From a bacterium (GTDB taxonomy: Bacteria > Cyanobacteriota > Vampirovibrionia > Vampirovibrionales > Vampirovibrionaceae), in assembly GCA_030429585.1 (NCBI GenBank), contig JAUIEU010000001.1:554316-618315 (forward strand): a stretch of DNA of 64,000 nt, given 5' to 3'. The stretch's first letter is position 1. Every line of letters begins with the position of its first letter. The notes under the pieces are model-generated. The model worked only from the letters and a program-made list of their open reading frames with translations. It was not told where the DNA came from and searched no databases. This document shows, piece by piece, positions 36,995-50,596 of the stretch. The translations under genes and the position numbers were made by a program.

Positions 36995-38008
36995 TTGATG
37001 GCGCATACAAATACAACAGCACGTCCGGGCCAAGCGTTGGTAGAGTTTGTTATTATGATGCCCTTTGTTGTGGTGTTATTGCTGGCTTCTACTTATATTG
37101 GCTTTGGGTTGTTGCAATACCATGTCACGGCCTCTCACCTTAGGGGTGTCCATAAAAACATGGAGCGCTATGCCAGCCTGATCGACCCCCTTTACCAAAT
37201 ACAGCAAGACGTTGGCAATGGGTACACCGTAACGGAAGAAGGTGGCAATAAATTTAGGGGCCGAGTGATAAAGGCCACCAAAACGTATAGTATCCCTAAT
37301 CTTCCGTTTATACCGGCCATTACTCTTATTAGCAGCACCACCGTGCCAGGTGCACTAATGGAAGGCTTGAACGGCCCGTTTTTACCCGCGCTATCTAACT
37401 TGGGCAATGGCCCAGGCACGTACCCGGATATTCCAGGTAGTGGCGGCGGTAATGCTATTGGCTCTGCTGCCATACAACTGGCGGAAAGTAATTTGTTTAG
37501 AGACATGATGTTTTGTGCCGATATGACCTATTGCTACGGACGAGATTTGGCAGGGGCCGCCACCAGCTATGCGTCATCTGACTTGAGCTCGCATTATACG
37601 GGCAGTGTGTTTTCTCACGTAACGGATAATCTTGACTTGGCCCTGCCGGGCGGTGTTTATATGGATGCCAGCTGTACGGTAACGGATGAGAACTTAGGGC
37701 ATACAACAACATTATCCCGAGATAGCAATGGTGACGGTACAGATGACTTGGACTTTTCAGGCCCCCAGGTAGTTGATTTTTTAGCGGATAATACAACAGT
37801 AGCGTTACACCCCCAATGTTTGGCGGGTTGTAATACTTTGCATGCAGGGGGTACCCAGGCGGATTTTGATAGCTGTGTGAATCCGTGTTTAACAGGTAAG
37901 CTGGCTAATGCCCGTGCCTATGTAAATACCCATATACAGCTTGCAACAGCAGCGGGTGGGTGCGGCACAGAAACCATTGTCACCCCAATCAATCCGGTGG
38001 TTAATTAG
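36995..38008 (+). CDS. TadE-like pseudopilin with a large Cys-containing C-terminal domain
   Basis: RPG|QALVEFVIMMPFVVVLL TadE motif. Confidence 0.8.
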   Translation: MMAHTNTTARPGQALVEFVIMMPFVVVLLLASTYIGFGLLQYHVTASHLRGVHKNMERYASLIDPLYQIQQDVGNGYTVTEEGGNKFRGRVIKATKTYSIPNLPFIPAITLISSTTVPGALMEGLNGPFLPALSNLGNGPGTYPDIPGSGGGNAIGSAAIQLAESNLFRDMMFCADMTYCYGRDLAGAATSYASSDLSSHYTGSVFSHVTDNLDLALPGGVYMDASCTVTDENLGHTTTLSRDSNGDGTDDLDFSGPQVVDFLADNTTVALHPQCLAGCNTLHAGGTQADFDSCVNPCLTGKLANARAYVNTHIQLATAAGGCGTETIVTPINPVVN

Positions 38009-38010
38009 CC

Positions 38011-39003
38011 ATGGAACACAACCACATGCCATTACCTCGCATCGTACGCCGTGCCCAACAGGGCTATGTGGCGGCCTTACTTGGCGGTGTTGGCTTAATG
38101 CTATTAGCAGCTATAGGGGTGGGTATTTACACCGGTATTGTGGCCTACGTTCAAGGAGAACTCCATGAAATTGCCCTGTCGACGGCAGGGACGGCAGCGC
38201 GCTCTGTGTATGATGATGTTGATGCCACAACTCAGGCGCCTGTACTTAGCCCTGCCAAAGCAGTAACCGCTGGCTGGGAGACCTTTAATAATATGGTTGC
38301 TGCCAACACTATTTTAACGGCGTTTAACCCCGGGTTGGATTTACACCCCTTAGGCGATGAGGTGTATGAGGCGATTGTGTTGGCAGAAGTTAACGTGCCG
38401 CTACTTGCTATTGTTGGGCTGGATAATATGCTGATAGAGGCCCGCGCTAGTGCTATTTACGCCCAGAATGATTTATCCACCATTGTGCAGGATATTCACT
38501 CGCAAGGGGGGGCGCAATTTGTTAATGTGCCGCTGGATTTACCGGTGTTGAATGGCTCTGGGCCAGATATTTATATCAGTACCCTGGCGAGTAGTACCCC
38601 CAAAGGCTATCATGGCGTGATGGTGGAGCTATGCGTGAATAATGGCGATTGCTATGATGTTGGCGATGGGGCGTATCCTACCGATGCCACCAAGGGCCTA
38701 ATTGTAGAGCGCAATGGCCGCAATGTGTTGTATGGCGAATTTTTTATCGATTTAGAAAATGTTGGTATTAATAAAGGAACGACAATTCGAATTGTGGATG
38801 ACTTGGTAAACGACCGTTATTTAGCTGCCGACCTTAATACCGCCAATAGAAAACGCATACTGGAGTTGGTGCCCCATATGGTGGATTTGTTAGAGTTGCG
38901 CACTTTTCACCATGCCTTTATGTGCTTTGAAAATAATTGCAGCTACCCAACAACCCGCTTTGTCGCCGGTTCAACCCCTTATGTGGATTCGAATCCGCCA
39001 TAG
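38011..39003 (+). CDS. TadG-like pilus-associated protein
   Basis: QQG followed by a hydrophobic helix, then ELHEIALSTAGTAA, and ARASA after the beta region; in an Flp/TadE context. Confidence 0.65.
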   Translation: MEHNHMPLPRIVRRAQQGYVAALLGGVGLMLLAAIGVGIYTGIVAYVQGELHEIALSTAGTAARSVYDDVDATTQAPVLSPAKAVTAGWETFNNMVAANTILTAFNPGLDLHPLGDEVYEAIVLAEVNVPLLAIVGLDNMLIEARASAIYAQNDLSTIVQDIHSQGGAQFVNVPLDLPVLNGSGPDIYISTLASSTPKGYHGVMVELCVNNGDCYDVGDGAYPTDATKGLIVERNGRNVLYGEFFIDLENVGINKGTTIRIVDDLVNDRYLAADLNTANRKRILELVPHMVDLLELRTFHHAFMCFENNCSYPTTRFVAGSTPYVDSNPP

Positions 39004-40535: not shown

Positions 40536-41924
40536 TTAGGCCAAGGTGGTGGTATGGGCCAGCTCGCTGTCATCGTTAAAGCGTTGTAGCAGTAGGGTAG
40601 AGAGTAAAATAACGCCGCCGCCGAGCAAAAAGGCCAGGCCTTCGTGCATGCCGGTTTGGCTAATAATGGGGCCCACCGCCAGGCTGCATAGTAAGCCGGG
40701 TGCGGCAATAAAAATGTTAAACACGCCCATTAACACACCCTCTTTACCCTTAGGGATGTGGTTAGACAGCATGGCAAAGGGTACGGATAGGGTGGTGGCC
40801 CAGCCCATACCAATCAGCCCCATGCACACCAACAGCATAATAGGGTCGCGCACGATAAAGAGGCTCATCATGGCGAGGGCCATGCATAATTGGGTGGTGG
40901 TGTGGACGGCTTTTTTGCCAAAGCGTTGGCAAAGGCCATCGATAAATGGGGAAAAGGCAAAGCAAACCCCGTTGAGTACCGCAAACCCTAAGCTGGCCCA
41001 TTTCACGCCATCGTTATATAGGGCGGATTGAGGGTCTACAGCGCCAAAGGCTATTTTGGGTACAAACACAGCAAAAAAGATGAACAAACACATTAGGCCA
41101 AACCAAGTACCACTGTGGGCCAAGCACAGTACCCATTGGTTAGGGCTTAGGTGGATACCGCCCCACATATGGTTAAAAAAGCCAGTAAGCCCCGCTGTTT
41201 TAGGGTGGGTGTTAGCGGCGTGGGCTTCGTGTTGCAGGGCGGTGGAAGGGGCTTCTGGGGTTGTAAAAATAGTCACCCCCATGGCCACTAATATGGCCAC
41301 GGCTCCTAAGTAAAATAATAGGTGCATGCCATCAATCACAAAGGCAATCATAAAGGCGGCAATCGACCCTAACCCAATGGTTAGGCTCATCATACTGTAG
41401 GCTTTGGTTTGGCGCTCTGGGTTAAATACATCCGGTACTAAAGCGCGGTAGGGCCCTTGGGTTAGGTTAATGCTGGCATCCAGCACCCATAGCAATAGGG
41501 CCGCCACCAATAACCCCATGGGGAAACTAACCGCTAAGCCCACGGTGCTGGTAAACCACTCGCCAATGGCTTGAGAGTTGGGCATTAGGATAAGGCTGAT
41601 GGCGATAAGAATACTACCCACCAGTAAAAAAGGCCGACGGCGCCCTAGCGGGCTGCGGTGCTGATCGCTTAATACACCCACAATCGGTTGCACCAGAATG
41701 CCGGTTACTGGGCCTGCCGCCCAAATTAGGCTGGTTAGCCAAGGCTCGGAGCCGAGTTTTTCTAGCAAAGGGCTCATTTGGCCCATTTGCAAGGCCCAGG
41801 CAAATTGAATGCCTAAAAACCCGATGCTAACTAAAAAAGGGCTGGCCACTTGCTGGCGATGTTCTGCCGGGCGAGTCGGTATGCCGGAGCCAGCGGTTTG
41901 AAGCGGTGTGGATTGAGAACTCAT
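40536..41924 (-). CDS. MFS sugar transporter, SUC/SLC45/MalT (maltose/sucrose:H+) type
   Basis: GIQFAWALQ, WAAGPVTGILVQPIVGVLSD..SPLGRRRPF, LDASIN..QGPYRAL.D, GVLMGVFNIFI; about 12 TM segments. Confidence 0.9.
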   Translation of the reverse strand: MSSQSTPLQTAGSGIPTRPAEHRQQVASPFLVSIGFLGIQFAWALQMGQMSPLLEKLGSEPWLTSLIWAAGPVTGILVQPIVGVLSDQHRSPLGRRRPFLLVGSILIAISLILMPNSQAIGEWFTSTVGLAVSFPMGLLVAALLLWVLDASINLTQGPYRALVPDVFNPERQTKAYSMMSLTIGLGSIAAFMIAFVIDGMHLLFYLGAVAILVAMGVTIFTTPEAPSTALQHEAHAANTHPKTAGLTGFFNHMWGGIHLSPNQWVLCLAHSGTWFGLMCLFIFFAVFVPKIAFGAVDPQSALYNDGVKWASLGFAVLNGVCFAFSPFIDGLCQRFGKKAVHTTTQLCMALAMMSLFIVRDPIMLLVCMGLIGMGWATTLSVPFAMLSNHIPKGKEGVLMGVFNIFIAAPGLLCSLAVGPIISQTGMHEGLAFLLGGGVILLSTLLLQRFNDDSELAHTTTLA

Positions 41925-42028: not shown

Positions 42029-45000
42029 TTACGAGGCTTTACCCTTACGGGTGCCATTGGTGGTGCTGGTGTTGTTACTTGGCTTGCCGGCTTGCCGAAC
42101 AAGTACGGCATAGGTGTGTAGGGTGCCCGTACCACGGGTAAGTTTTAACGTGCCGTCGTCATCCACGGTGTATTCATCGTTATTCTCTGGGTTTTTGTAC
42201 ACGGTGCCAGCCGGTTGGTCTAGCAAGTGAATGTCTGGCTCGTATTTTTCTATGCTGGCTTGTGTGGTGTGTATTTCGGGGTATTGCTCATTGGTTGCCC
42301 CTAGGATGTTGTCGTAATACTCGCCGGGGACAGGGCTGGGTTTGCCGGTATTTACCATCATAATAATTTGCTGGTTGGTCTCAGGGGTCGCCGCGGTTGT
42401 GTTGCTGCTGGCTTCTGCTGGGCCACCATCCCAGGCGGCCAGTAATACACCATGGGTGTCATCCTGGGTGATATTTTGAAGAAAGCCGCCATTAATAACC
42501 GGGTATTGCTGACGAATGGCCAACAGGTTGCGAATAACATTAAACTCTTTTTGGATAAAATCCATTTGGGGGTTATCCAGCCAATCCAAACGAACAGGCT
42601 CGCGGTTTTGCATAAATTTATTATTGGTTCGCTCGCCACCGGTTCTAAAAATATCGTACCAAGTGGGTTGGCCTGGCAGGGCCACCATTAGTGCTATGCG
42701 TCGTCGGTCTTTTTCTAACGCGGGTGTTAGTAAGTGTTGAAAAAAGTCATGCTTAAAGGCGGCTGCGGTTCGCCCGGTTGGGTTTTTAGGGTATAGGCGG
42801 CTGCCAATTTCATCTACCAACTTGGCTAACGACATATAACCTGGCAGGCGCGGGTGCTGCTGGCTCCATGTGTTTAGGGTGTCGGTGAGCATATCGTAAA
42901 AGGCGTCTGCTTTGGGCAAATGGGCCAAGCCAGATTGTTGGGCATACTGTTGGTAACCGTTTGCAAGGAAAGCACGGGTAGCCCACACTTCGCTGGTGGT
43001 ATTAAAGGCGGTTTCTAATTGGTTCCGAATCATTTTACCAAGGACAGGGTGATTTAAGGCCGCTTTCCAGTCGTCGGCATCATCACACCGTTCGGTTACA
43101 GCCAGGGATAATAATAACTTTCCTAGTTGCAGCCTTAACTTTTTCATGTTTTGGGGCGGTTGGCCTAGGTTGTATTTTTCCATTGTGGCCCGCTTGTCTT
43201 CTTCTCGGTAAAAATCGTGAAGAAGGCTAGGCAGCTCGTCTAGGGTTAGCTCTTGAGCAAGGTTGGCTAAGTTTTCAAGCGCCTCTTGTGGGTCCGTCAT
43301 CCCGGCGTTCGTCATGCTGTTACGGAGGGTGGCAAAATCTGGCTTGCTGGCAATGGTATTTAAAACATCTCGAACATCTTGGTCAACGCCGCGGTAAGGG
43401 TAGTAATCCATCCCATTAATCATGGGGTTTCGTAGTAAGTTATACAGCGTGTTGGAGTAATCGTGGCTGGCCGTAAAGGTTTGGGCAAGTTGGGCCGTTT
43501 CTTTTGCGTGGTTGTATACAAAGGGCTTAAGGGCAGACTTCCAAAAAGATTGGCCAGGGTTTTCCGCATTATCCACCTGCAGTTGGGTTTGGCCGTATTC
43601 ATACGGTTTCGGGTCGTGGTGGATTAATTGGAGTAGGCTGCTAAAAAAGTAATCCATATTAACTGGGCCGCCAAACAGGCTGCTTTGCCCCTTGGCTTGT
43701 GGGGTGAGCAATTTATCTAAGGCTTCCTTGCCCCCTTCCACACCACCTAGCGGGGTCATTTCAGTAAGCTCTGCAATAATGGTACTTTTAGGGAATATCC
43801 GTTTAACGCCAGCCAGTAAGCTGCCCCACAATACAGTGGCATGGTGCATTTCTTTTTTAAAGGCGCGTTGCTGGGCCAGGGTATCGGGGGCATTACGAAC
43901 GGTATCAATATCGGCAATATCTTTGGCAGCATCCAGGCGCCAGTTTAGCCCAAGTTCTTTTTGTTGAATAAGATGATCGGCAATGACTAAACTCTCAGGG
44001 CTAACGGCTTCTAGCTGCTGGGTTGCCTGTTGAGCCAGGTGGGTAAGGGGCAGAGCTGCAATATTGTGGAGCATCTGCTCGCGCAAATGCTTGCGAGAGG
44101 TGGCCACATCTTGCAGTAATACCTTGGGCCCTAAGCGCTTAGACAGTTGCTGCTTTACCGTTTCTGGGCCTGTTTCTGGCTGCCCCGTAAACACGGTTTG
44201 CCATAGGGCAGGGCCAATACTGCTGGCAAACAACTCTTGGCCTAGGGGGTGTTTTAATACTTGTTGGGCCTGTGGCGAAAGTTTTTCCGTAATGCTGGCC
44301 AATGCAGAAGAGAGTTGGGCATGAACATTACCCTTGTTTTGCCAGTCAGTAATCTTTTTGCCTAAGGCCGATTGGTTGCCGAGTAGGGTTTTTGCCGGTG
44401 TTAATAGGGGGGAGGCGATGTCTCTGGCGCCCTGGTTATACAATAGATAGTGGTGGCTGCTGGGGTGTGAGAGTAGTGCCTTTAACCGCAGAGAATCTGG
44501 GGGTAAATCTACCGACAGGGGTGGCACGGTGGTAAGCAAGGTGTTGGTTAGCGCTGCACCGCTGGGCAAGGGGGCGTCCGGGTTGTCTCGGTGTAGGTTA
44601 GCCAGCGCTTTATTTGGTAGCCCCGCTTGGGTAAGGGCCAGCTCGCCATTACTCACCAGGCTGTCTACTTGTTTAGTGGCCTTATCCCAATGGTGGGTTT
44701 GGCGGTAGGCGTGTTGTAGCTGGGTAGCCAAATGCTGGCGGTACAATTGCTGGACGCGTTGGGTCCAGTAGGATAAAGCCTTGCGGGTGTAGGCTTGTAC
44801 CTCTGGGTTGTCCATGTTCATTTGGATGGCCTGGACTTTGCCATCCCACTTGTAGCCGCTGTTGTCTTCATCTGGCCTACCCAGGCGGTAGTGGCGCCAT
44901 TCTAAAAAATTGGCGGCTTGGTCGCTGGTAATCGTGGTGGTATCTGTGGCCAGGCTAGAGTGGGCTAAGCGAGTTTTAAATTCATCCTCGCTAACAGGCC

Positions 45001-46096
45001 AGCGAAACGGGTGGGTACTTTGCCCACCAGGGAGCCATTGTTGTTCGCTTTTCTTGGTGGGGTCAAATTGCTCTAGGTACACAGGCCGAGAGGCGTCATA
45101 ATCTGGCATATAAGGCGAATTAATCACCCTAAGGCCCACGCGGGGCCAATCTACCTTTAAGGCGCCTTGGCCGTTGTCGTTTACAGGCAGGGTACCTACT
45201 ACCATTTTATGGTGGACAGCCGCGTTAGGGTACAGTCGACTAGCGGATTCTGGGTCGCCCTTATCAAACACAAACCATGACCAATATGGCGAGCGCACTC
45301 CGTTTAGCAATAAATCTTGGTATAAGGGGCTAGCAAACCCTTGGTTTACAAAGGCACCATCGCAATATACCTTAACCCCTTTGTGCAAGGCCCCCAGGAA
45401 GAATTCGTTAAAATCCCCCTTATTTGGGAAGGCATTATTTAAGGCAAAGGGGTCTGCCGTCCAATAACGGTGGGCAGAATCCCAATCGCCAGAGTGGGGA
45501 GTCAACATAACGGCCCCAACGCCATGTTTGGAGGAGGTGTTTAGCTTGTTGAGCAGGGCGGTAACCCCGTGGATAGTACCGTTATACCGTGTTTGGCTAT
45601 CTGTAGGGGCAGGGGTCACTAAAGGGTCGGTTAAGGGGTCATCGCTGTTGGCGTCCGGTAAGGTCATGCTATCAATATAGGCATATAGCATGCTGCCGCT
45701 TCGTTGCGGGCCGTGTTGCTTGCGGGCAACATTCCATTGGCCTTTGGGGTGGGCCTTTGTGGCGGTGTCAAAGGTACGGCGTTCGGTTAAATCAAAGCGA
45801 ATGTCATCCGTATCATCCCAAAACCGGTAATACACTGTATCGCCAGCAACGTGGTTTAGGGTATCTGTGGGGGCTACCCAGTAGCGGCCATCTTTGGTTT
45901 TGTTCATTTCCACCGCTTTGCTGCCACTGCCGGGTACAAACACTTCTAGCAGGGCGCTGTCTTGCTCGTGGGTACCGGCCTTCCAAAAGGTGGGTTTGCT
46001 GATAGTTGTTTTTGTGGTTTTGTTTGCAGCCCAGTGGTACCCGGCAAAACGAGTTGCAGGCAATGTGGGTTTAAAAGTAGGTGGGTGGGAACGCAT
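42029..46096 (-). CDS. giant GH13 alpha-amylase-family glycosidase with two large insertions
   Basis: YNGTIHGV, VMLTP, HRYWTAD, YCDGAFVN (beta3), WRLDAAKD (nucleophile, ~D722), IIAE (~E776), ASHD (~D879), LPGQPTWY, REPV; N-terminal CBM48-like beta region. Confidence 0.85.
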   Translation of the reverse strand: MRSHPPTFKPTLPATRFAGYHWAANKTTKTTISKPTFWKAGTHEQDSALLEVFVPGSGSKAVEMNKTKDGRYWVAPTDTLNHVAGDTVYYRFWDDTDDIRFDLTERRTFDTATKAHPKGQWNVARKQHGPQRSGSMLYAYIDSMTLPDANSDDPLTDPLVTPAPTDSQTRYNGTIHGVTALLNKLNTSSKHGVGAVMLTPHSGDWDSAHRYWTADPFALNNAFPNKGDFNEFFLGALHKGVKVYCDGAFVNQGFASPLYQDLLLNGVRSPYWSWFVFDKGDPESASRLYPNAAVHHKMVVGTLPVNDNGQGALKVDWPRVGLRVINSPYMPDYDASRPVYLEQFDPTKKSEQQWLPGGQSTHPFRWPVSEDEFKTRLAHSSLATDTTTITSDQAANFLEWRHYRLGRPDEDNSGYKWDGKVQAIQMNMDNPEVQAYTRKALSYWTQRVQQLYRQHLATQLQHAYRQTHHWDKATKQVDSLVSNGELALTQAGLPNKALANLHRDNPDAPLPSGAALTNTLLTTVPPLSVDLPPDSLRLKALLSHPSSHHYLLYNQGARDIASPLLTPAKTLLGNQSALGKKITDWQNKGNVHAQLSSALASITEKLSPQAQQVLKHPLGQELFASSIGPALWQTVFTGQPETGPETVKQQLSKRLGPKVLLQDVATSRKHLREQMLHNIAALPLTHLAQQATQQLEAVSPESLVIADHLIQQKELGLNWRLDAAKDIADIDTVRNAPDTLAQQRAFKKEMHHATVLWGSLLAGVKRIFPKSTIIAELTEMTPLGGVEGGKEALDKLLTPQAKGQSSLFGGPVNMDYFFSSLLQLIHHDPKPYEYGQTQLQVDNAENPGQSFWKSALKPFVYNHAKETAQLAQTFTASHDYSNTLYNLLRNPMINGMDYYPYRGVDQDVRDVLNTIASKPDFATLRNSMTNAGMTDPQEALENLANLAQELTLDELPSLLHDFYREEDKRATMEKYNLGQPPQNMKKLRLQLGKLLLSLAVTERCDDADDWKAALNHPVLGKMIRNQLETAFNTTSEVWATRAFLANGYQQYAQQSGLAHLPKADAFYDMLTDTLNTWSQQHPRLPGYMSLAKLVDEIGSRLYPKNPTGRTAAAFKHDFFQHLLTPALEKDRRRIALMVALPGQPTWYDIFRTGGERTNNKFMQNREPVRLDWLDNPQMDFIQKEFNVIRNLLAIRQQYPVINGGFLQNITQDDTHGVLLAAWDGGPAEASSNTTAATPETNQQIIMMVNTGKPSPVPGEYYDNILGATNEQYPEIHTTQASIEKYEPDIHLLDQPAGTVYKNPENNDEYTVDDDGTLKLTRGTGTLHTYAVLVRQAGKPSNNTSTTNGTRKGKAS

Positions 46097-46377
46097 GGCG
46101 GTGTGAGGAATAACCGGGTTGGTGTTAGTGGGTGCCCTGCCGGTATAGGCGGGGGCAATTATTACCGTTTAGGGGGCTTTATAAGGTCAACATCATGGCT
46201 GTTAGCAAATGTTCAAATCGCCAGCCCTGATGCGTTTATCTCACCGTGCGTGTCTACCATCGTGGTATTCCATCAAGTGTTCTCTTAATAACGTTCTTCC
46301 ACTTGTTAAATTGCTTGTTAATGGTGCCTTTTATTAAGGTTTATAACCATTTTCCGGTAAATCCACTTTGATAGCCA

Positions 46378-47507
46378 TGACAGTGCGACATTCACAGCCC
46401 CAATCACCCCCATTTAAGGCCATATTTGCACAATGGCCAGCCCCGGCTGTGGCAACGAGTGATAAAAATCACTATGAAGGGCCTGAGATATATTTTAATG
46501 ATAAGCCCTTATCTGAAGAGGTGGTGGTGCACCAAAACCCGCTACAGCAAATAGGGCATGGCGTTAAACAGGTGTTTGTAGAGCTACCCAAAGCCGTATG
46601 GCGTGGCCTGCAAGGCACGCCAGAGTATACCTTTGGGGATTTTTTGTTGATTGGTAAAGTGCCGTACTACTTGGGTGGGGCCACCCTGGCTGCTATTTTT
46701 GCCATGGGCCGCCACGGGCTTACATTGGCCCGGCAAGGGCCGGCTATTGCCATGTATTACTTAGCCATTGGCCTAAGTAATATGCTGATTAACCAATCGG
46801 TTAAATCCAATACAGGGTTGGATTTAGGCCTAAAATATAAAAATGCACTCGGTAAACTGAAGCCGGTGTATGGCGATGCCACCTTCTCTCGGTATGATTT
46901 GGTGCCTAAGGCCACGTACCAGCATATGGCCAAAAAAATGGGTATTCCGCTAAGCGTGGCAGACCCGGATGATGAAGTGCAATCGGTTATTGCGGATATG
47001 TTGCCCCGCATCCGCTTAGCCAAAATGGTGCTAGGGAATACCTTAGCCGCAGTGGCGGCGGGTTACCTGGCCAGAACAGACGAATGGCACCGTGTGTTTA
47101 CCACCATACCAGGGGTGCTATGGCACAAAAAGCCAGCCAAGCGTTTAGGCATCCTATTAAAGGATTCTGCCAAGGTTATTGCCCACCAGTTTGGTGGCGT
47201 TAAGCGGGCCGCTGGCATGGGGTTACCCCCTAAGCAATTTGCTGTGGTTAAGCACGTGGCGATGGGCTTTATAGCGGCAGCAGTAATTACCACCTGGCGT
47301 TTATTACGCCCCCCTGTGGATAATAAGGCATACCAACATTCAGAACGTATTGGGGATGTAAAACCGCCCTTGGCTCAACATTCTGGTAATCTCTCTCGGG
47401 CACAACTGTTGTGGGAGACGGATCAACAACGAGAATTCGCTCGTCACGGGCGCGATGTGGCCACACTCCAGCAATCTAGGTATAGAGCAGCAGGAGGGAC
47501 GCAATGA
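46378..47507 (+). CDS. hypothetical membrane protein, paralogous to the N-terminal domain of the next gene
   Basis: Several hydrophobic segments; VKSNTGLDLG..Y...G...YGD..F.RYDL...AKKMGIP block; stop overlaps the next start (ATGA). Confidence 0.8.
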
Positions 47508-50500
47508 CCACCCTGCCTGTAACACCACCTATCACCTCAACAATACCTAAGCCAGAAAAGGCCCACTTTATTACACACCCAATGGCCAAGGGCCCAAAGC
47601 GCCCCATGCCTGCCATACATCCTCAGCATGCTTTTCTGTGGGGTTCACCGGCTGTTCAGGGGTATTTAGCCGCAAAAGGCACTAATCCAGAGCAGCCTTA
47701 TAAAAGCGTGGTGAATGATCTCTTTTCTCCGGATACCCGTGTGAATGCCCATGAATTAGGGACGCTTGAATTTGAATCCAAGCTAACCTCTGGTGGGGTT
47801 ATTGCCCTGCTAGGTAGCTTAAGTAGCACTAACTTTGCCTTGGCCACTAAAGAGATATTGGGGTTTGCTGGCTTTTATGGCTCCATGGGGATATTGCCCC
47901 ACATTGTGCACTGGTGGGTAAAACAAAAAACCGGGGTAGATTTAGAACATAATTATCTAAGCACCCAAGGGGATAAGCGCAATTTATTTACCGACCCCCA
48001 ATACTTGCCGCTACAATTGCTACCCAACCAAGAGATTGATGCCATTGGTAATAAGTTGGATGTACCGAAGCATTTGAGTAACCGGCGCCGGGTAATCGAA
48101 GATAAAATTAGAAGCACTGTAGCCCAGGCGCAAACGTGGTGGATGATAACTGCAGGCCCCTTAGTGCCTATTATTGGTAGTGGCTTAGTGCGGGTAGTAG
48201 AACCCCTTTTCTTAAAGTTATCTAATAAAGCACAACAGGTTTTTTGGCAGTCTAAGGTATACCGAAACCCGGATCATCCGAAGTATGTGAAACGCTTTGA
48301 CCATTTATTAGCCACGGTGGTGGGTAGTTCGCCTAATACGGAACTATCCCGTTGGTGGACAACACTGCAAAAAGATGTGGTGAAGGAACTGGATATTCCT
48401 AAGGCGTTGGAGGCCCTGCCACGACGAGAACGCCAACACCAAAGCTGGTGGCACCGTGTGATGAAAACCCATATTCGTCGCCTAAGTGCTGCTCATGTGC
48501 ATGGCCGCTCACCTGCCATTCAAAAACGGTTGCAAAAACTAAAAAACCGCTTAGATAGCACCTATCTATCTAAAATCACAGAGATGGAAGGCAAGCTAAA
48601 TACATGGGCCACCCGTGCCCCCCATAAAACATTGCGCTCTCATCATGTACAGGCGTTAAATGCGGCTAAAAATATGTTGCGCCAGTACAAACAATTGCTC
48701 ACCGTGTTGCAACGCCCAGATGTGTTCCCTACCGATGCGACGATCCATACGTTGCTGCAAGGGGGTACCACTACTAACATTACCCGCCTGTTAGAAAACG
48801 GCCAATACAATACAGCCAAAACTGTGTTAGGCAGCCAAGGCAATTTAATAGAAGCGATTGGTGCCAGCCACAGCCGCCAGGGCCAGCGCCTTAACAGCCT
48901 AATGGGGGCAACTATTGCAGATCAACTAACCAAGGGCGCCAAAGAGGTGATTAACTCACGCCACTTTAATCGCTGGCTGGTAGGTGGTGTGGGCGGCGGT
49001 ATTGCGTTAGCAAGTGCTATTTTTTATCAGTTGGTACTTAGTAAAACTTCTCGCCGCCGTAAGGAGGGCTCTGCTAGTAGCACGGAAATTTTAAATAAGT
49101 ATAACGCCACCCATGCCTTTGAACGATTGCAAGCGACTATTGCGGCCCAAAAAACCCTTAAAACCACCTTGCCGCTCCGTAACACCACCCTAGAAAAACC
49201 GGGCTACTTAAAACAACTGTTTAAGCAAAGCCAAGCGGTTATTTATGCCTTAAACTTGCGTACTTTTGGCGCCACGGATGCCAACCATGATGGGGTCATA
49301 CAGCCGCAGGCGAACGAGCATGGCACTTTCTTATCTGCCATTAATCGGCTGGATGAACTACAATCCATGGGGGTCAATACCATCCACTTATTGCCTATTA
49401 ACCCAGTAGGCACTATTAAACAAAAAGGCACGGGGGGCAGTGTGTATGCAGTGGCGGATTACCATACCCTAAACCCGCAGCTTAAGGATAACACCAGCCC
49501 ACTTAATATTTACCAGCAAGCCCGCCAGTTTATACAGGCCGCCCACCAGCGGGGCATACAGGTAATGGTGGATGTACCCAGTGTGGCGGCTTATGATTTA
49601 GCCATTACTCGCCCGGATCTTATTTCGGTTGATGGCCATGGCCATACCTTAACCCCAGCGGACTGGGAAGATGTGGTGTTGTTTAAAAACGACAAAAACC
49701 TACAGGATTACTACGAAGGCTTTTTTGACTTGATGGCCAACGATGTGGGGGTAGATGGCTTCCGCGTGGATGTGGCGCGTTCTCGGCCAAATTGGTTTTG
49801 GCAGCATTTTATTGGCAAGTACCCCAACCATGCTTGGATGGCAGAAAGCTATGTGGAAGAAGATGCCTCGCCACTCCAAAACATCCCTAGGGATGTGCCG
49901 GAAACCTTATTAGGCTTAGGCTTTGACAGTGTGTACGGGCAAAATCATATCTTCCCTAAAATAAAAAGTGGCCAAGCCTATATGGATTACCTGCTTGAGA
50001 TTGAAGGTATGTTTAAGCGGGCGAACCTGGCTAATGGCAACCCGCCAGTGGCACAAGGCAAATCGGTTATTGGGTCCTTCCTTACCCATGATGATAATGA
50101 AACCTTGATGGACCATGGTGGGATTGCCTTTAATAAATTCTGTTTAGCGCTTATGGCGTTTCAGCCCTATACCAACCCATACCTGATTGATGGCATGCAA
50201 AGCGGCTACCCCCACCGCATTAATATTTTTGATTACGCGCCAGCACACAAAGGCAGTTACCCCGGTACCGCTGGCTTTATTCAGCAGGTGTTTAATACTC
50301 GTGCCCAGTATGCCGATGTGTTGGCCAACGGCCAATTTACCCCCCACGTTATTACCAAAGACCCCCACCATCAGTTGTTTGCCTACAGCTTAAGCCATAA
50401 TGGTAAAACGTTATTGGTGGTGGGTAATAAAGACGTGAACGCACGATCCACAGGGCATATTGAACTGGCCTTACCTAGCCAGGCGCCGCTGGTAAACCTA

Positions 50501-50596
50501 ATACCGGAATATGGCCGCCAAAGTAGCGTACATGCCCAGCCGGACAAACTCCATGTAAGCATGGGGCCTGCGCGATTAATGGTGTTTGAAATTTAG
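47504..50596 (+). CDS. membrane-domain / GH13 alpha-amylase fusion
   Basis: From residue ~580: IYALNLRTF, DANHDG, GTF...LDELQSMGVNTIHLLPI, GSVYAVADY, VMVDVP, GVDGFRVDVA (~D756), MAES (~E781), THDD (~D863). The N-terminal ~580 aa carry TM segments. Confidence 0.88.
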   Translation: MTTLPVTPPITSTIPKPEKAHFITHPMAKGPKRPMPAIHPQHAFLWGSPAVQGYLAAKGTNPEQPYKSVVNDLFSPDTRVNAHELGTLEFESKLTSGGVIALLGSLSSTNFALATKEILGFAGFYGSMGILPHIVHWWVKQKTGVDLEHNYLSTQGDKRNLFTDPQYLPLQLLPNQEIDAIGNKLDVPKHLSNRRRVIEDKIRSTVAQAQTWWMITAGPLVPIIGSGLVRVVEPLFLKLSNKAQQVFWQSKVYRNPDHPKYVKRFDHLLATVVGSSPNTELSRWWTTLQKDVVKELDIPKALEALPRRERQHQSWWHRVMKTHIRRLSAAHVHGRSPAIQKRLQKLKNRLDSTYLSKITEMEGKLNTWATRAPHKTLRSHHVQALNAAKNMLRQYKQLLTVLQRPDVFPTDATIHTLLQGGTTTNITRLLENGQYNTAKTVLGSQGNLIEAIGASHSRQGQRLNSLMGATIADQLTKGAKEVINSRHFNRWLVGGVGGGIALASAIFYQLVLSKTSRRRKEGSASSTEILNKYNATHAFERLQATIAAQKTLKTTLPLRNTTLEKPGYLKQLFKQSQAVIYALNLRTFGATDANHDGVIQPQANEHGTFLSAINRLDELQSMGVNTIHLLPINPVGTIKQKGTGGSVYAVADYHTLNPQLKDNTSPLNIYQQARQFIQAAHQRGIQVMVDVPSVAAYDLAITRPDLISVDGHGHTLTPADWEDVVLFKNDKNLQDYYEGFFDLMANDVGVDGFRVDVARSRPNWFWQHFIGKYPNHAWMAESYVEEDASPLQNIPRDVPETLLGLGFDSVYGQNHIFPKIKSGQAYMDYLLEIEGMFKRANLANGNPPVAQGKSVIGSFLTHDDNETLMDHGGIAFNKFCLALMAFQPYTNPYLIDGMQSGYPHRINIFDYAPAHKGSYPGTAGFIQQVFNTRAQYADVLANGQFTPHVITKDPHHQLFAYSLSHNGKTLLVVGNKDVNARSTGHIELALPSQAPLVNLIPEYGRQSSVHAQPDKLHVSMGPARLMVFEI

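Follow-up and report, generated by a model that had tools for sequence, protein, structure and literature searches.

Two overlapping genes in the chromosome of a member of the Vampirovibrionaceae raise the question of what a hydrophobic protein fused to an amylase-like enzyme, and the related protein encoded immediately upstream of it, do together. We analysed a stretch of 64,000 nucleotides (hereafter the window; positions 554,316 to 618,315 of contig JAUIEU010000001.1, NCBI GenBank assembly GCA_030429585.1), a chromosome segment in which the genes surrounding this pair, here called A and B, are cell-wall synthesis, glucan and housekeeping genes. An initial annotation of this DNA had proposed that A and B share an unnamed membrane domain, one copy being free-standing and the other carrying a GH13 cargo, and that the two assemble in a membrane as an anchor or translocon reminiscent of paired translocators. 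We find that A, B and the GH13 enzyme form a real, conserved and previously unannotated three-part system, encoded by three genes in most relatives and with B fused to the enzyme in one clade that includes the source genome.

Two coupled genes sharing an ancient module

The genes and the module that they share were located as follows, with coordinates counted from the first letter of the window, lengths in amino acids (aa) and open reading frames abbreviated to ORFs.

46377-47507 (+): gene A, called as an ORF from ATG, 376 aa (379 aa with the TTG at 46368 as start), the free-standing copy of the module
46626-47132 (+): shared module in A, about residues 87-255, from the ranges aligned by BLASTP and hhalign and from hydropathy
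47492-47507 (+): A/B junction, AGGAGGG at 47492-47498 and then ATGA, read from the sequence
47504-50596 (+): gene B, 1030 aa, made up of module, helical middle, hydrophobic helix 4, linker and GH13
47759-48256 (+): shared module in B, about residues 86-251, from BLASTP, hhalign and hydropathy

The 376-aa ATG form of A is the one held in the database record (P0004). At 47504-47507 the TGA stop codon of A overlaps the ATG start codon of B within ATGA, and AGGAGGG lies 5 bases upstream of the ATG of B; the two genes are translationally coupled. Counts from a scan for promoters and terminators were at or below those of shuffled sequence and gave no usable signal.

The initial annotation had aligned two blocks of 50 residues, at residue 145 of A and residue 139 of B. 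The blocks do align without gaps, with 13 of 50 residues identical, and the similarity reaches beyond them. BLASTP aligned the modules over 155 columns at 19 % identity (E 4e-6), and the Smith-Waterman score of 89 compares with 38.0 +/- 5.4 for 500 whole-sequence shuffles and 37.7 +/- 5.2 for 500 shuffles within 20-residue blocks, the maximum in either set being 59 (z ~9.5). Comparison of 4 A-type with 2 B-type sequences by hhalign gave a probability of 95.3 % over 171 columns (E 2e-8), and a profile of four A-type sequences and the B module retrieved both genes, and only these two, from their own genome. An identity this low could arise by chance or from the similar composition of two hydrophobic proteins; however, this explanation is refuted by the shuffles, which preserved composition and local blocks, by the profile-profile probability, by the retrieval of both families with a single profile in the same genomes and by the agreement between the predicted secondary structures of A and B, and we give it practically no credence.

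We utilized 125 of the 155 module-bearing proteins, those covering at least 100 profile positions, to build a tree, in which A-type (72) and B-type (53) sequences were split at one branch with 100 % local support. The duplication is old, because a single fully supported branch separates the two types. A and B are thus true paralogues, as had been supposed, of ancient origin and sharing a module of about 170 residues. Relatives were sorted as A-type or B-type by best BLAST score, the former being mostly 320-470 aa and the latter about 500-1286 aa in length.

A profile search of 1.84 billion representative proteins, clustered at 50 % identity, identified 382 clusters of the A/B family at E ≤ 1e-3 and 146 at ≤ 1e-10, with lengths of 137 to 1286 aa among the best 150 of the 382. 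This exhaustive search gave a fuller set than a word-index homologue search, which returned only 4 A-type and 2 B-type proteins; a profile search of contigs with a 10-sequence alignment returned 4 related loci, titled Vampirovibrionales or Cyanobacteriota. Among genomes, which were sampled from the class or the phylum and assigned to families coded f1 to f9, A/B were present in 80 of 201 Vampirovibrionia. In a phylum-wide sample of 301 genomes, matches were confined to family f7 (123 of 126) and the source genome, and none was found in the 174 remaining genomes from other families. Neither A/B nor the GH13 enzyme of the triad turned up in the other cyanobacterial families sampled, and the A/B family is so far known from Vampirovibrionia alone. 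Of the 28 matching genomes in the order, 25 have A followed by B on the same strand, and the same adjacency was seen throughout the class-level matches. One A-type match in family f7 (G196:C5:49626-50552) reads through two TAG codons and one TAA, and may be a decayed copy or an overrun of the alignment past the end of the gene.

The GH13 enzyme, separate or fused

Two segments of B concern the enzyme and its attachment.

49046-49210 (+): linker between B and GH13, residues 515-569, matching in alignment the low-complexity N-terminal extension of stand-alone GH13 proteins
49211-50593 (+): GH13 catalytic domain and C-terminal beta domain, residues 570-1030 of B, from PF00128 and PDB matches

Where B is short, the next gene encodes a stand-alone GH13 of 532-644 aa which is 40-54 % identical to the enzyme part of B. 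This held at all nine split loci examined (L012-L014, L015-L018, L020 and L022), which come from four of the coded families. Fused frames of 1002-1125 aa were identified in G000, G002, G006, G007, G009, G010, G040 and G179, and G006, G009 and G010 each contain a fused set alongside a split one. A GH13 part was found in 4 of 156 A/B proteins compared, and these four form one clade (support 97). The initial annotation had called GH13 a cargo and suggested looking for others, but GH13 is no exchangeable cargo: the neighbour at the nine split loci is always the orthologous GH13, and no other cargo domain could be recognised on the module in any of the 58 relatives scanned among the best 150, long ones included. 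No Pfam family passed its cut-off in these 58, sub-threshold matches being limited to MnmE_helical, CC_PcsB and DUF445, and the long B proteins have a longer helical middle instead.

Carriage of the enzyme follows that of A and B closely. A GH13 orthologue (E ≤ 1e-30) was found in 82 of the 201 class genomes, among them all 80 carriers of A/B, and the tallies for A/B and GH13 are equal in f1 (18/24), f2 (5/5), f3 (6/19), f4 (2/2), f6 (0/30), f8 (0/9) and f9 (0/12). They differ in f7 (A/B 48/49 versus GH13 49/49), where the extra genome has a second, unlinked GH13 paralogue alone, and in f5 (A/B 0/47 versus one weak GH13 match in 47). The alternation between split and fused forms, together with this strict co-occurrence, indicates that the products of the triad work together physically. 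Most f7 genomes (for example G166:C1:902241-903710) encode a second paralogue of the triad GH13, about 515-550 aa in length (E ~1e-120 to 1e-135), which does not lie beside A/B; G060 has this second paralogue only, without A/B.

The stand-alone enzymes carry a low-complexity N-terminal extension of 66-162 aa (9/9), of which 58-68 % is Pro, Gln, Ser, Thr, Asn, Ala or Gly. None of these nine extensions contains a hydrophobic stretch fit for a signal peptide or an anchor, the maximum Kyte-Doolittle mean over 15 residues (KD15) being 0.89.

The enzyme part of B scores 27.4 bits with PF00128, above the cut-off of 22 (E 2.5e-6), in its N-terminal part only, and matches 30 PDB GH13 chains at E ≤ 1e-3; the GH13 domain is real but divergent. 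The best PDB match is AmyB of Thermotoga neapolitana (4gkl, E 3.4e-17) and the second a Lactobacillus plantarum protein (3dhu, E 1.8e-16), each alignment covering some 160-180 residues. These are followed by the maltosyltransferase of Thermotoga maritima (1gju, E 4.4e-11) and GlgE (5cgm, 3zss and others, 1.5e-7 to 1e-4), soluble maltosyltransferases without membrane partners whose similarity to the triad enzyme is weak and partial. The maltosyltransferases 1gju and GlgE all act on maltosyl units of alpha-1,4-glucans, and AmyB is a maltose-forming exo-amylase.

The nucleophile D756 (VDGFRVDVAR) aligns with VDGFRCDVA of 4gkl and is invariant in 10 of 10 orthologues. E781 (WMAES), equally invariant, aligns with LAES of 3dhu, the 4gkl alignment stopping earlier, and THDD (H862-D863-D864) is kept in 9 of 10 orthologues, its last Asp in all ten; the invariant catalytic columns are D187, E212 and D295 in the numbering of the domain, so that the catalytic Asp/Glu/Asp set is intact. 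From reading these alignments, E781 is the candidate acid/base Glu of region III and THDD the candidate region IV. A 2024 paper places 4gkl and 3dhu in a new subfamily, GH13_48 (PMC11239784). These two resemble the triad enzyme in the VDGFR-x-DVA region of the nucleophile and in a short domain B. The paper reports Cys directly before the nucleophile in 81 % of GH13_48/49 and otherwise mainly Ala, Val or Leu (PMC11239784); the residue is Val here and Val, Ser, Ala or Leu in the ten orthologues, among the minority variants of the subfamily. Its further signatures of GH13_48 are L-[DN] closing region V, GQ closing region VII and an equivalent of Asp135 (PMC11239784); the PDB alignments of the triad enzyme end before region VII. 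It also describes GH13_48 members as usually without extra domains (PMC11239784), unlike the triad enzyme, which invariably has A/B-type proteins as companions or fusion partners. On these motifs the enzyme is probably active and GH13_48-like, in a divergent group of its own. Just before the barrel, in the window at 49270-49300 (B residues ~590-599), there is an EF-hand-like loop, D-x-N-x-D-G-x-I, which is kept in most orthologues, has weak PF13202 matches in L013 and L014, and may be a calcium site.

Hydrophobic helices and predicted structures

The remaining features of A and B are their hydrophobic helices and the segments between them.

46641-46706 (+): helix 1 of A, from hydropathy
46734-46802 (+): helix 2 of A, from hydropathy
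46803-47015 (+): conserved loop of A, with beta-hairpin
47016-47072 (+): helix 3 of A, from hydropathy
47229-47306 (+): helix 4 of A, residues 288-313, its most hydrophobic segment (maximum mean over 19 residues, KD19, 1.76)
47783-47848 (+): helix 1 of B, from hydropathy
47852-47911 (+): helix 2 of B, from hydropathy
47912-48133 (+): conserved loop of B
48134-48202 (+): helix 3 of B, from hydropathy
48203-48964 (+): helical middle of B, residues 234-487, AlphaFold2 helices at a predicted local distance difference test (pLDDT) mostly > 90
48965-49045 (+): helix 4 of B, residues 488-514 (KD19 1.57)

Hydropathy places four hydrophobic segments in each protein, two before the conserved block, one after it and one further downstream, exactly in the order that the initial annotation had read from the sequence, and the four peaks are kept across 38 A-type and 41 B-type relatives. 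The family medians for helix 4 are 1.61 in A-type and 1.66 in B-type sequences, and 19 of the 38 A-type relatives reach at least 1.6, the usual threshold for a membrane span. Judged by hydropathy only helix 4 would count as a textbook span, and we consider the A/B module a probable membrane domain. Of 16 unfused B-type proteins inspected, 508-1286 aa long, 15 have their last hydrophobic helix ~10-60 residues from the C-terminus, and the other (P0101) has no segment above the threshold. Between helix 3 and helix 4 the helical middle of B varies in length from ~250 to 900 residues among the relatives.

AlphaFold2 predicted A as all-helical with a beta-hairpin (pLDDT 82.4, predicted template modelling score, pTM, 0.73) and gave similar values for residues 1-560 of B (pLDDT 81.9, pTM 0.71). 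The elements of the two models follow one order, helix, long helix, two short strands, short helix and very long helix, at H98-113, H117-149, E156-158, E164-166, H181-190 and H200-234 in A and at H82-107, H111-143, E150-152, E158-160, H175-184 and H194-254 in B.

Searches for a known family or fold, which would have shown the domain to be a characterised one with another role, returned no curated family for the module and no solved fold above noise. A had no Pfam or NCBIfam match at E up to 1, and a Pfam scan of 38 A-type members found no family common to them, even weakly. Nothing matched A/B in PHROGs or PADLOC, so that the pair is neither a phage module nor a defence module of a known kind, and the ESM Atlas returned only unnamed clusters of Candidatus Melainabacteria. 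A PF10558 (MTP18) label carried by 33 % of one such cluster, scoring 0.76, was unsupported by the scan of the 38 members. Foldseek found no match to PDB at E ≤ 1e-3 for A or for the N-terminus of B. In the wide VIA-align search the best score for A was Z 5.2 (a bacterial dynamin pair, root mean square deviation, rmsd, 12.9), within the noise for helical proteins, and that for the middle of B was Z 7.5 (Mrs2/CorA stalk and spectrin repeats), a generic three-helix-bundle match within the noise for helical models. The A/B family is therefore without a known sequence family or fold in Pfam, NCBIfam, PHROGs, PADLOC or Foldseek, and the novelty of the system lies in a family that matches nothing known, joined to an enzyme that is a variant of a known subfamily. 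In the literature on amylase and glycogen in Vampirovibrionia and Melainabacteria, judged by titles and the beginnings of abstracts, there was nothing on the A/B family.

A possible scaffold at the inner membrane

What the three proteins might do together can be set out as an arrangement that we prefer, tentatively and at somewhat less than even confidence, in which A and B form a heteromeric inner-membrane scaffold holding a GH13_48-like alpha-glucan enzyme at the cytoplasmic face. A and B would sit side by side in the membrane as a pseudo-symmetric heteromer, to which each would bring a hairpin of marginally hydrophobic helices (1-2), a conserved loop that includes a small beta-hairpin, and two more hydrophobic helices, 3 and 4. 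This complex would keep the alpha-1,4-glucan enzyme at the membrane, non-covalently where GH13 is a separate gene and covalently in the source genome, where helix 4 of B is followed by the fused enzyme. The C-terminus of B is expected to be cytoplasmic because the stand-alone enzymes have no export signal; four spans would then place the N-termini and the conserved loops (TG-x-DL...Y...G...D-P...L-x-P) in the cytoplasm like the enzyme, and the helical middle of B, variable in length, on the periplasmic side. As for what a membrane site would serve, our guess is that maltodextrin or glycogen chains may be processed alongside a transport step. The insertion into the membrane, the topology, the substrate and the reason for a membrane site are all inferred.

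That A and B assemble as subunits had been part of the initial annotation. Coupling and paralogy favour it, and a predicted A-B complex weakly supports heteromeric assembly: the interface score derived from predicted aligned errors (ipSAE) was 0.41 as against 0.00 for the best of 3 controls, with a partner pLDDT of at least 70 and at least 79 % of contacts agreeing between runs. Of 157 solved complexes, 116 passed the mark set for this score, as did 2 of 215 mismatches, and values of 0.60 or less comprised 18 of the 157 solved complexes and both passing mismatches. The prior for binding is raised by paralogy, translational coupling and conserved adjacency, and on the model binding of A to B is weakly suggested.

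Several observations weigh against this arrangement. An ipSAE of 0.41 falls in a range where most passes are wrong unless the prior is high. The median KD19 is 1.0-1.3 for helices 1-2 and ~1.4 for helix 3, short of the usual 1.6, and Lys and Arg counts are alike on both flanks of each helix, so that the positive-inside rule yields no topology. In the enzyme, region I is without the near-universal Asn-His of GH13, VMVDVPSV being aligned with DMVLNH of 4gkl and nine of ten orthologues having DVPS[VC], mostly DVPSC. In AmyB the region I His helps to bind the non-reducing end, according to the 2024 paper (PMC11239784), and without Asn-His the activity of the triad enzyme may be unusual or low. Lastly, alpha-glucan genes (gene C, an MFS transporter, GT5 and MalQ, described below) stand beside the triad at just 10 of 20 non-self loci, nine of them from the source family, and were not found at the f2, f4 and f7 loci or at the f1 loci L008 and L020; owing to this patchy presence they say little about the core role of the triad.

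The low hydrophobicity leaves room for another explanation, in which A and B are helical scaffolds that are soluble or only peripheral to the membrane, bound for example to glycogen granules or to the membrane surface; the hydrophobic helices would then be cores of bundles and helix 4 at most an anchor. Besides the sub-threshold values of helices 1-3, all the loops are rich in Lys and Arg, all three proteins have long disordered, low-complexity N-termini, and the AlphaFold2 bundles, predicted with confidence, look no less like soluble helical repeats than like anything else. However, helix 4 reaches 1.6-2.1 in many members and stands, anchor-like, at the extreme C-terminus of unfused B, and the Gly/Ala/Ser-rich helices 1-3 are kept as hydrophobic peaks in both families. 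We hold a soluble or peripheral role to be improbable.

If the helices do span the membrane, A and B might be more than a passive anchor. They could form a transporter or conduit for maltose, maltodextrin or nascent alpha-glucan which the GH13 enzyme feeds or from which it receives, the pair of enzyme and transporter being the functional unit. A pseudo-symmetric pair would bring together eight hydrophobic helices, with conserved polar or aromatic residues within them (PYYLGG, RQG, YY and GN in A; E117, P132 and T211 in B); the pair co-occurs strictly with the enzyme, the stretch of variable length that separates helices 3 and 4 of B might serve as a stalk in the periplasm, and an MFS gene lies nearby in the source lineage. 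On the other side, neither sequence nor fold resembles a transporter family, the VIA scores of 5.2 and 7.5 being within noise, the hydrophobicity is low for a polytopic transporter, and the locus already has a separate MFS transporter. We regard a transport role as unlikely, and a bolder version of it as a longer shot still: an envelope machine in which a paralogous heterodimer conduit with a periplasmic stalk of variable length couples a cytoplasmic GH13, which transfers maltosyl units or releases maltose, to the passage of alpha-glucan or malto-oligosaccharide through the inner membrane. If true, this would be a synthase/exporter or importer/processor of an undescribed kind in Vampirovibrionia.

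Known systems offer partial parallels to a membrane scaffold of this type. The SMR pairs EbrAB and YdgEF are duplicated, neighbouring and co-translated four-helix paralogues that are expected to pair, as A and B are, although A and B are much larger, have big soluble loops and tails, and bear no relation to them in sequence or fold; Lys and Arg counts on the helix flanks detected no opposite charge bias between A and B. In rBAT (SLC3A1) and 4F2hc (SLC3A2) a GH13-fold domain is carried on a hydrophobic helix and works with a membrane-protein partner, as in the triad. These differ in being eukaryotic, with an extracellular domain and a 12-helix LAT partner unrelated to A/B, 4F2hc being catalytically inactive, and no search made found homology between rBAT/4F2hc and A/B.

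The comparison with paired translocators, made in the initial annotation, rests on the type III pairs SipB/SipC and YopB/YopD, which like A and B are encoded by adjacent genes and are helical with moderately hydrophobic segments. Unlike A and B, these pairs are not mutual paralogues and come with a dedicated chaperone and an injectisome locus, neither of which was found in the gene context of A-B; a VIA match of A to a SipB fragment (Z 4.4, rmsd 6.1, 121 residues aligned) is within noise. The likeness is one of analogy only. A and B might nonetheless form a pore of their own, either to export the GH13, which has no signal, or to insert into a target membrane in the manner of secretion translocator pairs. 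In favour of such a pore are an enzyme without a classical signal peptide, yet tied to two hydrophobic helical proteins, the moderate hydrophobicity of the segments, a trait ascribed to secreted membrane proteins, and two FlhA/SctV-type (FHIPEP) export gates in the genome. However, AmyB is intracellular, export of the fused form would have to include the membrane-embedded half of the protein itself, GH13_48 enzymes are described as usually without extra domains (PMC11239784), both FHIPEP genes lie far from A-B and the one inspected is among the flagellar-type genes FliF and FliH, and the near-universal presence of the triad in f7 is housekeeping-like. We judge an export role very unlikely.

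The inspected FHIPEP copy, at G000:C1:544328-546301 and ~8 kb before the start of the window (L023 9751-11883, -), belongs to a short cluster of a FliF-like gene, an unknown gene of 398 aa, a FliH-like gene and FHIPEP itself, which may represent a second export apparatus of flagellar type or what is left of one; the other copy is at 1752545-1754518.

Two neighbours of A-B in the window are of the alpha-glucan type.

42029-46096 (-): gene C, GH13-like, 1355 aa with large insertions, the divergent neighbour of A-B (PF00128, E 5.8e-5)
40536-41924 (-): MFS/sugar-transporter-type gene, downstream of C (PF07690 and PF13347)

By tblastn, C was found beside A at 10 of 20 non-self loci (L004-L007, L009-L012, L019 and L021). 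L011 has the same order of C, MFS, a starch-synthase-like GT5 and MalQ, and GT5 also occurs at L021. Pfam and PDB recognise C only over residues 147-294, where the PDB matches are of the neopullulanase type. The candidate downstream GH13 motifs NWRLDAAKD, IIAELTE, FTASHD and LPGQPTWYDIF were read from the translation, unaligned, and their spacing, if they are right, implies insertions of several hundred residues inside the barrel. As a guess, these glucan genes point to turnover of maltodextrin or glycogen.

Elsewhere in the window, 52750-53307 (-) is an ORF of 185 aa without a Pfam family, whose C-terminal half is very acidic and of low complexity, with runs of D, E, K and T. Adjacent ORFs of 337 and 330 aa at 36995-39003 (+), the first with a TadE-like N-terminal match below the cut-off (E 0.0015), may encode pilus-assembly-type proteins.

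A strict link to one enzyme, at times through gene fusion, provides an unusually clear and testable handle on the function of A and B. If the pair is only an anchor, the result is a useful annotation and no new principle, while A/B could also reveal a new membrane-protein fold. The genes are near-universal in one large family of Vampirovibrionia with genomes of 1.6-2.5 Mb (f7) and also common in the predatory-type order that contains the source genome, and their function would show how these non-photosynthetic sisters of the cyanobacteria handle alpha-glucans at the membrane.

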